Assembly: GCA_963774265.1 (NCBI GenBank)
Contig: CAVZDU010000002.1
Span: forward strand, 128,001-192,000
Length of the DNA: 64,000 bases
Direction of reading: 5' to 3'
Source: an uncultured Chloroflexia bacterium
Lineage (GTDB): Bacteria > Chloroflexota > Anaerolineae > CG2-30-64-16
Shown here: piece by piece, positions 1-62,861 of the stretch
Layout: each line of letters opens with the position of its first letter
How positions within the stretch are numbered: the first letter of the stretch is position 1
Notes under the pieces: model-generated
Told to the model about the DNA's origin: nothing
Seen by the model: the letters and a program-made list of their open reading frames with translations, nothing else
The model's database searches: none
Translations under genes and position numbers: made by a program

Positions 1-789
1 CCACTTGTTGTCGTGCTGCGAGAAGGTCCACAGGTCGCACCGGTTCGATCCGCCAAACACGCAGTACGGCTTCGATTGCTCCTTCTGCTCCCACACATTC
101 CCAACGGGGTCCGTGATCCGGAAGGTGACGGTCGAGATGCCGTCCCCATCACGACGCCCCTCGTTCCGGTCGAAGACCTCCACCTGGAACACCAGACGGT
201 CCCTGAAGACGACGTTGCCAGAGTCAACCATCCACACCACCCCGGGCAGAATGACGTTCCGGCCGTTATTGACCGGGCGATCGTTGCTGATACGCGGCGG
301 GATGGCCGTGTCTTCGCTATCATTGCCGAACACCTTGACAAGAGCAAGCGGCGGCAACCGCGTGGGGGTTGGCGCCGGCGTGCGCGTGACCGTCGGCATT
401 GACGGAATCCGCCCGACTGGCAACGCCGTGAACGGCTGATTACAGATCACAAATTGAGCTCCTGCGGCCACAAAACCGAAGGACCGGCCCGCTGTCTGTT
501 CCACCCCGATCCATGTACCCGAAGGCGTACCGCGCGCTATGAATGAAACACCACGTAACCTCGTGTTCCTCGCCAGGCGTCCAATCACAGGAAAGGCCGT
601 CCCGGGCCCTGCACGCACCAGCAATTGAGACGCTCGGACGATGCAGGTCGCCACGGTCGGCGTAACCGTTGCCTGAGCCAGGGGCGCGACCGCCGGAGCA
701 TCCGCGGGGGATGCGACGACGCGAGCGCTGAAAACAGTCGTCGCTACCACAACCGCACACATACTGAGAATCATGCATATTCTACGCAT
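1..789 (-). CDS. Secreted protein with SH3b-like domain and Thr/Pro linker (runs off window end; absent from ORF track)
   Basis: Hand-translated from ATG 789: MRRICMILSMCAVVVATTVFSA (signal-like), then LLVRAGPGTAFPVIGRL (SH3b-like motif), then PTVTRTPAPTPT. Open to base 1. Start overlaps the stop of the CHAT gene (TGATG). Confidence 0.7.
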   Translation of the reverse strand, partial: MRRICMILSMCAVVVATTVFSARVVASPADAPAVAPLAQATVTPTVATCIVRASQLLVRAGPGTAFPVIGRLARNTRLRGVSFIARGTPSGTWIGVEQTAGRSFGFVAAGAQFVICNQPFTALPVGRIPSMPTVTRTPAPTPTRLPPLALVKVFGNDSEDTAIPPRISNDRPVNNGRNVILPGVVWMVDSGNVVFRDRLVFQVEVFDRNEGRRDGDGISTVTFRITDPVGNVWEQKEQSKPYCVFGGSNRCDLWTFSQHDNKW

Positions 790-60580: not shown

Positions 60581-61309
60581 CTACAGCTTCGTGGCGCTGA
60601 AGCAGAGCTCCGCTACACCCGCTTGCTCGAAGAATTCAATAGTCCAAGTGTGCCAGCCGGCGGGGATCCACACATCCACGAAGAAGCCGCGCACTGCCTG
60701 CTCGCGCCATTCGTTCAGCACCAAAGCCCCGTCGACATAGACCCGCACGCCGTCATCCGTCCTCACCGCAACGCGGTACGTTCCGCCAACCGCGTTCGAG
60801 ACCGTCGTCCAGCGTGCAGAGAAGTAGTCCGGCGTGACCTGTGGCGCGGGCGAGCCCCAGCCCCAGTTGTAGCACGGCCGGCCTTCGGGCCGATTCAGGA
60901 CCACCGGTCCGGACAGATCCATGCTGTTATAGTAGGTCGCATTCCAGGCCCCATAGGGGGGTTTAGGCCATGGCTGGGGGTGCGGCTGCGGGTGTGGACC
61001 CGGTTGTGGGTGCGGCTGTGGACACGCACGGTAGATCACCAGTGTCTGTCCCACATAGATGCGGTCGACGTTCCAGATGTTGTTCCACCGCTGAAGCTGG
61101 GCCACGGTCACGCCGTAGCGATAGGCAATCCGGGTAAGATTGTCACCTCGCGCCACGCGGTGGTACACAGAACAGGTCGTCGCCCCCTGACTAGTGCTCG
61201 CAGCGCTCGAAGACGCCGGGGCAGCCCCCGCCGCAGGGACGAGCACAGCGGTCAGCAAGAGGATGACGACCATGAGGGCGCCAAACCGGCGCATCGAGGG
61301 TGTGGACAT
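60581..61309 (-). CDS. Secreted LysM + PA14 domain protein
   Basis: Signal peptide, HRVARGDNL..IA.RYGVT...IYVGQ.L (LysM), PQPH repeats, WGWGSP..DYFSARW..TDDGVR (PA14). Confidence 0.9.
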   Translation of the reverse strand: MSTPSMRRFGALMVVILLLTAVLVPAAGAAPASSSAASTSQGATTCSVYHRVARGDNLTRIAYRYGVTVAQLQRWNNIWNVDRIYVGQTLVIYRACPQPHPQPGPHPQPHPQPWPKPPYGAWNATYYNSMDLSGPVVLNRPEGRPCYNWGWGSPAPQVTPDYFSARWTTVSNAVGGTYRVAVRTDDGVRVYVDGALVLNEWREQAVRGFFVDVWIPAGWHTWTIEFFEQAGVAELCFSATKL

Positions 61310-61384
61310 TGTGCGCTCCTTTCGCCTGACTTCTTACTAATAAAGACGTTGCCGCTGACAGGACGTTCCCATCCTTTTGGGCCT

Positions 61385-61414
61385 TTGACAGGCCCCCGTC
61401 GCGTATGCTATTAT
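61385..61414 (+). promoter_or_regulatory. Promoter of the tyrS leader
   Basis: TTGACA-18 bp-TATTAT with TG upstream of the -10; predicted start coincides with ATG 61421. Confidence 0.65.
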
Positions 61415-61420
61415 ACGCGC

Positions 61421-61492
61421 ATGTTACGGATTTTTCTACCACTAACTCTAACCTATTATTATGCGGGGGGCAACTGCCCCCATTCCGCCTGA
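61421..61492 (+). CDS. Putative leaderless Tyr-rich leader peptide of tyrS (MLRIFLPLTLTYYYAGGNCPHSA)
   Basis: ATG 6 nt after the -10; TAT TAT TAT at 61454-61462; followed by hairpins and a terminator before tyrS. Confidence 0.7.
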   Translation: MLRIFLPLTLTYYYAGGNCPHSA

Positions 61493-61534
61493 CACACGGG
61501 CGACACGCCGGTTCAGCACCTGTGGTGCCTTCCC

Positions 61535-61565
61535 GCAGCGTGGCGTTTGCCACGCTGTTTCGTTT
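61535..61565 (+). terminator. Attenuator terminator in the tyrS leader
   Basis: CAGCGTGGC-GTTT-GCCACGCTG followed by TTTCGTTT. Confidence 0.75.
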
Positions 61566-61629
61566 GCGTGAGACTCTCGCGTAATACTTATCGACAATTA
61601 TACAACACTTTCTTTTGGAGCGCAAGAGG

Positions 61630-62861
61630 ATGAATGCCCCAAAATCAGTTCATGAGCAACTTGCGATCCTGATGCGCGGGGTCGAATTCGGCGACGAGAC
61701 GACCCGTGTCAATATGGAAAACGAACTGCGCCAGCGGCTGACAGAGTCGGTACGCGACAGCAAGCCCCTGCGCGTCTACTGCGGCTTCGACCCAACCAAA
61801 CCCGACCTGCACCTGGGTCACACTGTGCCCATGCGCAAGCTGGCGCAGTTTCAGGAACTAGGGCATGAAGTTATCTTCCTGATTGGCACCTTCACCTCGT
61901 TGATCGGCGACCCAAGCGACAAGACCACCGCGCGCCGCCAGCAGACCGAGGAAGAGGCGCGCGATCACGCCAAGACATACGACCGACCAGGCATGGAACA
62001 TCCTGGACCCTGAGAAGACCCTGGTCATGTACAACGGCGACTGGTTGTCGAAACTGACCTTCACCGACATCATCGGCTTGGCTTCCAACTTCACGGTGCA
62101 GCAATTCCTGGTGCGCGAGAACTTCGCTCTGCGCTTCGAGAAGGGCGAACCGATCTGGCTGCACGAGTTCATGTACGCCCTGATGCAGGGATACGATGCG
62201 GTCGCCATGAAGACGGATATCCAGATCGGCGGCACAGATCAGCTCTTCAACCTGATCGCCGGTCGCAAGCTGATGGAGTCGTTCGGGCTGCGACCCCAGA
62301 CCATTCTCACCTTCCCAATCCTGGTCGGCACGGATGGCGTACTGCGTATGACCAAAAGCACAGGCAACCACATCGGCATCAGCGAGGCGCCCGAGGTGAT
62401 GTTCGGCAAAGTGATGAGCATCCCAGACAACGCCATGCGCAACTACGCGGACCTGGTGACTCGCTGGTCGCCGGATGAAATCCGCGAGAAGTTCGCCGCG
62501 TTAGAACGGGGCGAACTGCACCCGCGCGACCTGAAGATGCAGCTGGCATTTGAGATCGTCGATATCTTCCAGGGTCCCGCGGCTGCCGAGACAGCGCAGG
62601 AACACTTCCGCAAGGTCTTCCAGCAGCGGGAGCTGCCGTCCGAGATGCCCGAGTTGCGGCTTCTACAACCCATCAGCTTGCTCGACTTGCTCACCAATGC
62701 CGGCCTGGCGCCCATCCAAGAGCGAGGGGCGGCGCCTGGTGCAGCAGGGCGGCGTCAAGCTCGACGGCGAGCGCGTCGAAGACTTCAACGTGACCATAAC
62801 TCCCGCGGGCGAGCATGTGCTCCAGGTGGGGCGCCGCAAGTTCTTGAAGCTCATTGCGTGA
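61630..62861 (+). CDS. tyrS: Tyrosine--tRNA ligase (two apparent +1 frameshifts near 61981 and 62712)
   Basis: GFDPT.PDLHLGH, IGDPS; then [20 protein letters not shown]; then the S4 domain [25 protein letters not shown]. Confidence 0.94.

Follow-up and report, generated by a model that had tools for sequence, protein, structure and literature searches.

The locus described here lies in a 64,000-nucleotide (nt) stretch of DNA from an uncultured Chloroflexota bacterium (contig CAVZDU010000002.1, positions 128,001 to 192,000), which is called the window. All positions are those of the window. The locus consists of tyrS, the gene of tyrosine--tRNA ligase (TyrRS), and the leader in front of it. 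This leader contains a promoter, a very short upstream open reading frame (uORF) with three consecutive Tyr codons, several predicted hairpins and an intrinsic terminator. It is a candidate for a leader-peptide attenuator of tyrS.

Anatomy of the tyrS leader

The features are as follows. All are on the forward strand, and the hairpins are predicted.

61385-61414: promoter, with the -35 box TTGACA (61385-61390), an 18-nt spacer and an extended -10 element TGcTATTAT (hexamer TATTAT, 61409-61414)
61421-61492: uORF of 23 codons plus TGA, MLRIFLPLTLTYYYAGGNCPHSA, with ATG at 61421-61423 and TGA at 61490-61492
61454-61462: TAT TAT TAT, uORF codons 12-14, the proposed sensing site
61466-61481: hairpin 1, GGGGGC-AACT-GCCCCC, within the uORF (arms 61466-61471 and 61476-61481), -13.9 kcal/mol
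61486-61502: hairpin 2, CGCCTG-ACACA-CGGGCG (arms 61486-61491 and 61497-61502), -8.0 kcal/mol
61504-61542: candidate antiterminator, in which CACGCCGG (61504-61511) pairs with CCG (61533-61535) and GCGTG (61538-61542) and encloses hairpin 3, -16.3 kcal/mol
61516-61528: hairpin 3, small, GCACC (61516-61520) with GGTGC (61524-61528)
61535-61565: intrinsic terminator, stem CAGCGTGGC-GTTT-GCCACGCTG (61536-61557) and tail TTTCGTTT (61558-61565), -18.9 kcal/mol with the flanking pair
61566-61629: spacer between terminator and tyrS, with a small hairpin, the block ATCGACAATTATACAACAC (61590-61608) and a likely Shine-Dalgarno (SD) sequence GGAG (61617-61620)
61630-62855: tyrS, the regulated gene

The promoter, the uORF with its three TAT codons, the competing hairpins and the terminator were all found where the original prediction had placed them. 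One distance was corrected. The ATG of tyrS at 61630 lies 64 nt past the T tract of the terminator, instead of the 65 nt given earlier. The promoter matches the consensus at 11 of 12 positions in a promoter scan, and two promoter-like sites were detected in 61000-62000 against 0.3 expected from shuffled sequences. The ATG of the uORF is located 6 nt past the -10 box, and its A is the seventh nucleotide after the box. This is the usual position of the transcription start, and there is no room for an SD sequence at the uORF. The mRNA had been called leaderless. The start geometry is consistent with this, and the spacing from the -10 box to the start is kept at 6-9 nt in 39 related leaders. Judged from this promoter spacing, the uORF mRNA is probably leaderless.

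TAT is the minor Tyr codon of the genome (34% of Tyr codons). Hairpin 1 begins 3 nt past the Tyr codons, and the TGA of the uORF sits in the 5' arm and loop of hairpin 2. The terminator stem has 9-10 pairs and is followed by the T tract. Folding of the leader was better than that of 200 of 200 dinucleotide shuffles (z values of -4.0 and -3.5). No T-box had been recognised in the leader earlier, and the Rfam scan of 61000-62000 agreed with it: neither RF00230 nor any other Rfam family matched at E<=10. The whole genome was also scanned with the strict pattern TTGACN-16..19-TANNNT-5..9-ATG/GTG. It gave 102 candidates, in which the uORF was the sole short ORF to carry a Tyr run. Under the same pattern, no other convincing leaderless codon-run leader was found in the genome.

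Conservation of the leader in related genomes

The N-terminus encoded by tyrS was searched in 40 related genomes, and the upstream regions were then inspected. Most genomes of the same family share the TTGACA / TAT(T/G)AT promoter with a start codon immediately after it. Their leaders continue with a T(T/C)CTACC(T/C)CA-like block encoding F-L-P-Q, the codons TAC TCG TAT (Y-S-Y), a GGGGGGC/GCCCCC hairpin, a stop codon that is frequently followed by CGCGC, and a terminator stem nearly as in the window. At the position of Y-S-Y, the window and its closest relative have YYY, and a further two have YLY. A covariance model was built from 11 same-family leaders. In the window's own genome it gave a single match, at this site. 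It matched 23 of the 37 family genomes, once in each, and 7 of 151 genomes sampled from the class, the window's own included. A match among the class-sampled genomes, L059, was discarded as a false positive because it covered the terminator only. The 14 family genomes with no match belong to genera where the TyrRS query gave weak matches only or no leader. In five leader-less family genomes, no T-box adjoins the weak TyrRS-like matches, which may not be tyrS.

A pattern scan of metagenome contigs that was blind to the downstream gene yielded 17 loci. By tblastn, tyrS was present downstream in 14 of them; in the other three it was not detected in the available downstream sequence, which is short in some. 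The relatives with the leader are Chloroflexota, mostly Anaerolineae/Anaerolineales, with Caldilineaceae and Litorilinea further out. A Litorilinea aerophila MAG (L071) carries a Y-S-Y-S-Y form of the leader. The arrangement is kept in no fewer than 11 genera of the family and extends to other families. After the sources were pooled and duplicates were removed, 44 distinct leaders of the window's type were obtained. The uORF with its Tyr run, whose conservation in relatives was proposed as a check, is kept in 39 of these 44. Of the 39 leaders with a promoter-adjacent start, 38 have TTGACA without mismatch as the -35 box, and all have a promoter spacer of 17-18 nt. The terminator pattern was matched in 37 of the 44.

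Hairpin 1 is conserved, with compensatory changes at its two outer pairs. The terminator stem is conserved in sequence across genera and shows covariation at three pairs. For hairpin 1 and the terminator together, 96% of the alignment cells are paired and five pairs carry compensatory changes, in an alignment that was fitted to the structure of the model. Hairpin 2 is present in the closest relatives (L002-L004) and was not seen in L005 or L006. Hairpin 3 is retained in the closest relative, L002, through one compensatory change. Both strands of the candidate antiterminator are kept in three relatives.

The reading frame of the uORF was inspected in the same leaders. An in-frame ATG or GTG follows the -10-like hexamer in the 39 leaders, at 6 nt (27 leaders), 7 nt (2) or 9 nt (10). 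The first Tyr is preceded by 11 codons in 22 leaders, by 10 in nine, by 16 in four, by 15 in two, and by 14 and 19 in one each. Therefore, all of the differences in length between start and Tyr in these 39 leaders are whole codons. Three stop codons are used among the 44 leaders (TGA 31, TAG 8, TAA 5), and each peptide contains 2-4 Tyr residues. The coding signature was evaluated with the 15 leaders that have exactly 11 codons before Tyr. Among differing codon pairs, 161 of 952 are synonymous in the uORF frame, compared with 41 of 853 and 65 of 848 in the other two frames. The entropy at the third codon position is 1.57, compared with 1.25 and 1.33 at the first and second. The Leu of the conserved L-P pair is encoded by five codons (CTA, TTG, TTA, CTG and CTT). 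By this pattern of substitution, the uORF evolves like a translated frame.

The wider set comprised 81 species-level tyrS upstream regions, namely those of the 80 best relatives in the genome collection and of the window. YYY is encoded on the forward strand in 15 of the 81 regions, and no region encodes it on the reverse strand. Runs of three of any other amino acid with two codons were found at no more than one of the 81 loci on the forward strand. The share of Tyr among the codons of these regions is 2.7%. A combined filter asked for YY or YxY in a short frame and for a terminator-like hairpin between that frame and tyrS. It was passed by 51 of 81 regions when the forward strand was read and by 0 of 81 when the reverse strand was read; three or more leaders already known to be of the window's type escaped it. 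Several leader designs can be told apart, and no sequence relationship between them is evident. These are the window's type; a type with ...H-T-Y-T-Y-x-x-G-L and another long hairpin; a type with M-E-L-L-Y-N-S-A...L-Y-Y-Y-P-x-L; and several further ones. The feature common to them is Tyr codons together with a terminator. In the designs that were closely inspected, the stop codon lies a few nucleotides ahead of a strand able to pair into the terminator, which is the textbook geometry. As read from these upstream regions, Tyr codons are the feature that tyrS leaders of this class have in common.

Some variants of these arrangements were also observed. Upstream of tyrS at L021, L026, L078, L083 and L087, the uORF ends in ...H-(T/A)-Y-(T/I)-Y-x-x-G-L-stop, and the stop lies within a long hairpin, AGCGGATTGTAGCGC...GC(T)ACAATCCGCT, with a separate terminator after it. 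In many Anaerolineales (L090, L101, L104, L105, L111, L115, L117, L122 and others; about 830-1420), a Tyr run, ...YYYAR-E/P-stop, forms the end of a conserved protein, about 170 residues long, whose gene lies directly upstream of tyrS. This protein has predicted membrane segments, and its sole Pfam match is a weak bacterial PH domain below the cut-off. A terminator that looks switchable lies directly 3' of its gene. The use of the 3' end of a real gene as the sensor of an attenuator would be unusual. At L043, L047 (1649-2575), L055, L143 (545-1264), L154, L155 and L157, a leader of the window's type heads a two-gene unit. There, a gene for a two-domain glyoxalase/VOC protein (PF00903) or a HAD hydrolase (PF00702) is placed between the leader and tyrS, and tyrS starts about 1 kb further on.

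The proposed switch and competing explanations

We consider it probable that the leader is a ribosome-mediated transcription attenuator, which would tune tyrS to the supply of charged tRNA-Tyr. This reading rests on the conserved uORF, its frame, the promoter-adjacent start and Tyr-x-Tyr in 39 of 44 leaders, and on the presence of tyrS downstream in relatives. In the proposed course of events, transcription would start with the A of the ATG (61421) or with a nucleotide beside it, and a 70S ribosome would load on the 5' end. When Tyr-tRNA-Tyr is plentiful, the ribosome would clear the three TAT codons, unwind hairpins 1 and 2 and arrive at the TGA at 61490. The terminator at 61535-61565 would then halt most transcripts ahead of tyrS. 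When Tyr-tRNA-Tyr is scarce, the ribosome would stall on codons 12-14 and leave hairpin 2 and CACGCCGG free. The free CACGCCGG could pair with the left arm of the emerging terminator and form the antiterminator at 61504-61542, so that RNA polymerase would continue into tyrS. We infer in this way that the position of the ribosome selects between the two structures and that a shortage of Tyr gives read-through.

The identity of the antiterminator is plausible from folding. Its predicted energy is -16.3 kcal/mol, compared with -18.9 kcal/mol for the terminator, and it has a probability of 0.88-0.98 in a nascent transcript that ends before the right arm of the terminator. The original prediction had paired CACGC (61504-61508) with the left arm of the terminator; this pairing is plausible in the window, but it does not rise above shuffled sequences in the family as a whole.

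Several results weigh against the attenuator reading and are gathered here. In equilibrium folds of the full leader, the terminator has a probability of 1.00 whatever stretch is blocked. This includes 61445-61475, the block suggested in the original prediction, which left the terminator unaltered. The antiterminator of the nascent transcript forms to the same extent whether the ribosome sits on the Tyr codons or has moved on to the stop codon, and it is lost only once the block reaches 61505, 3 nt past the standard ribosome footprint. Since the antiterminator is indifferent to the ribosome position, simple masking fails to explain the switch in the window. Complementarity between the post-stop segment and the terminator left arm was not above shuffles in 17 leaders (mean z -0.19), and that of the post-stop segment with the 5' portion of the uORF was weakly above them (mean z -0.86; best -2.7, -2.0 and -1.5; window -0.94). 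Two relatives, L003 and L018, have no clear terminator. At L009 (G007; leader at about 1186-1382), the ATG is 34 nt before Tyr instead of 33 and is thus out of frame; a single-base error in this 20-contig assembly is possible. Four leaders of the Caldilineaceae type have no promoter-adjacent start under the criteria used. TAC-TCG-TAT is more tightly conserved than the amino acids demand, which hints at a constraint at the RNA level or on specific codons. Finally, the sequences are related, so the counts of leaders are descriptive and are not independent tests.

Folding in the relatives gave a mixed picture. When the ribosome was represented as a mask in equilibrium folding of 17 leaders, the probability of the terminator showed no consistent direction between ribosome positions. 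In nascent transcripts of 39 leaders, pairing of the left arm was greater with the stalled ribosome than with the ribosome at the stop in 10, smaller in one and equal in 28; this comparison is not relied on, as the terminator finder often chose larger composites. Many relatives outside the genus of the window have a conserved CGCGC box 0-8 nt past the stop codon. A terminating ribosome would cover this box, and such leaders fit the classical model better than the geometry of the window does. In the window, the two ribosome positions differ in whether hairpin 2 forms beside the antiterminator. We can only suggest that this difference, or kinetics, tips the balance.

In a variant of the attenuator, the fixed 11 codons from the 5'-terminal AUG of a leaderless transcript to the first Tyr, the conserved L-P-Q...Y-S-Y peptide and the strong hairpin 3 nt downstream may all matter. 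It would be a sensor that works with a single ribosome, with the nascent peptide or the hairpin contributing to the stall at the Tyr codons. An untranslated leader would then be ON, and termination would require a ribosome at the stop codon. We regard this as doubtful. If true, such a default-ON sensor would not follow the trp/phe paradigm, in which a leader that is not translated leads to termination.

It is also conceivable, but in our view unlikely, that the uORF is translated and does not sense tyrosine. It could couple tyrS to the general translation capacity, or the peptide could have a role of its own, such as nascent-chain arrest. The conservation of L-P(-Q) at codons 6-8 and of G-G after Tyr as amino acids goes beyond the need of a passive carrier, and 22 of 39 leaders keep a fixed distance of 11 codons from the AUG to the first Tyr. 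However, the arms of hairpin 1 encode G-G and A-P, and thus the RNA structure explains this pair of motifs. Moreover, the Tyr run is the only feature in common with the other tyrS leader designs, and the regulated gene is tyrS wherever one is visible downstream.

The near invariance of UAC UCG UAU in nucleotides, despite the six codons for Ser, could instead point to an untranslated structured RNA. In such a case, UAC-UCG-UAU and hairpin 1 would be recognised by a protein or a tRNA, as in a degenerate T-box-like element or a TyrRS operator, and the frame would be incidental. Hairpin 1 is the best conserved structure, and the folds with a ribosome mask leave the switch unexplained. We nevertheless hold this explanation to be very unlikely. 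No T-box or other Rfam family was matched at E<=10, and hairpin 1 has a variable loop and so cannot be a mimic of the anticodon loop. The start stays beside the -10 box, and the frame survives length differences of 3, 12 and 15 nt. The use of three stop codons and the synonymous enrichment in the uORF frame only are likewise features of a translated frame, and the unrelated tyrS leaders share the Tyr codons rather than this RNA motif.

A chance combination of promoter, short ORF and terminator, with no regulated switch and with a terminator that does no more than close a small transcript or shield tyrS, agrees with the equilibrium folds, in which the terminator is always favoured, but it is scarcely credible, because the arrangement is conserved across the genera and families given above, the reverse-strand controls gave 0 of 81, and tyrS is essential and was matched once in the genome, so that a constitutive strong terminator would need a bypass.

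Genomic context and known systems

The first 127 residues of the tyrS product gave 100.4 bits with TIGR00234, and the intact ortholog in L002 gave 345 bits. When the gene was compared with the intact ortholog of a close relative by tblastn, it was read in three frames, at 61630-61980, 61937-62713 and 62646-62855. Two apparent frameshifts therefore lie near 61980 and 62700. A pseudogene seems less likely than indel errors of the assembly, which consists of 10 contigs and is 84% complete. Elsewhere in it, several ORFs located behind T-boxes look broken too.

Between the terminator and tyrS, a small hairpin right after the terminator (about 61565-61585) is kept. The block ATCGACAATTATACAACAC at 61590-61608 is nearly invariant in the genus, and its core GATTATAC(A/C) recurs in other genera. 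An internal promoter in this block was considered and rejected, since neither inspection by eye nor the promoter scan gave an acceptable -35/-10 pair; no convincing structure that would explain the block was found there either. On the other side of the leader, a divergent gene on the reverse strand (60581-61309) encodes 242 residues; the N-terminus resembles a signal peptide, and a LysM-type region is present. The matches of this protein to cell-wall hydrolase families of NCBIfam, at residues 33-95, were all weak. The spacer at 61310-61384 should hold its promoter.

T-boxes were found elsewhere in the genome (G000). There are nine matches, none at C2:189 kb, and two of them are above the Rfam gathering score. 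They lie at C10:334695, C1:935292, C8:204073, C1:1183541, C1:298920, C3:372842, C6:378412, C5:118520 and C1:788383. By eye, the ORFs behind four of the T-boxes resemble anthranilate synthase, valyl-tRNA synthetase, an AlaX-like protein and aspartokinase. A second aromatic leader was noticed at G000:C7 (about 437,700-437,975, reverse strand). It has a promoter, a uORF MRSQLSGANFYYYFTSPP... (also MRSQLSGANFYYYFTS...) that carries FYYYF, and a terminator AGCGTGGA...TCCACGCT-T8, whose stem resembles that of tyrS. The downstream ORFs look by eye like an operon of chorismate mutase and DAHP synthase. This leader was counted as supporting the attenuator reading of tyrS.

The control of tyrS is the textbook case of a T-box. 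In Bacillus subtilis, the tyrS T-box riboswitch (RF00230) reads the charging of tRNA-Tyr and chooses between a terminator and an antiterminator. The leader in the window would do the same job at the same gene, but the T-box binds the tRNA directly whereas the proposed device works through a ribosome. A closer parallel is pheM of Escherichia coli, the leader-peptide attenuator of the pheST operon. In both, the matching synthetase gene is preceded by a short ORF with many cognate codons and then by an intrinsic terminator. A stall at hungry codons gives read-through in pheM and would do so in the window leader. They differ in that pheM senses Phe and is led by an SD sequence, whereas the window leader has Tyr codons and is probably leaderless; the two belong to different phyla and have no sequence similarity. 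The 1:2/2:3/3:4 pairing scheme of pheM could not be demonstrated for the window leader.

In the part of PMC1262725 available (Seliverstov et al. 2005), pheM/pheST is cited as a precedent and classical attenuators are predicted before trpS and leuS in Streptomyces. The accessible text of PMC2965389 (Naville and Gautheret 2010) reports a His leader peptide before hisS paralogs in bacilli and emphasises the exchange of T-box and leader peptide at one and the same gene. These are also leader peptides before synthetase genes that were found by comparative genomics; the amino acids, genes and phyla are different. In those portions, tyrS appears in PMC1262725 only within the title of a reference and does not appear in PMC2965389, and the former describes tyrosine operons of Actinobacteria as having no conserved upstream RNA regulatory structure. 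The original prediction had known of no described Tyr leader peptide for tyrS. Our full-text literature search was in accord, as it found neither such a peptide nor any leader peptide in Anaerolineae; the taxon lists supplementing PMC2965389 and PMC4833913 lay outside that search. Leaderless short-ORF attenuators with polycysteine are described for mycobacteria in the consulted part of bioRxiv 10.1101/834739. As far as that part goes, they resemble the proposed window leader: the uORF opens the leaderless mRNA, which in the window is probable, and a codon run reports on the supply of one amino acid. The mycobacterial uORFs contain Cys and precede biosynthetic or operonic genes, whereas that of the window contains Tyr and precedes a synthetase gene. 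In Chloroflexi, T-boxes are reported for ileS and trp genes in the available text of PMC2494555.

The mechanism is classical, and the advance is one of scope, not of principle. A translating ribosome apparently takes the same decision on tyrS here, and T-boxes are in use at other genes of the phylum. Its recurrence in several unrelated leader designs across Anaerolineae would be a clear case of regulatory exchange and convergence. Gene callers and Rfam overlook such uORFs, and their inclusion would improve the annotation of many uncultured Chloroflexota. With its probable leaderless start, the tyrS leader may also serve as a natural system for attenuation without SD-led initiation.

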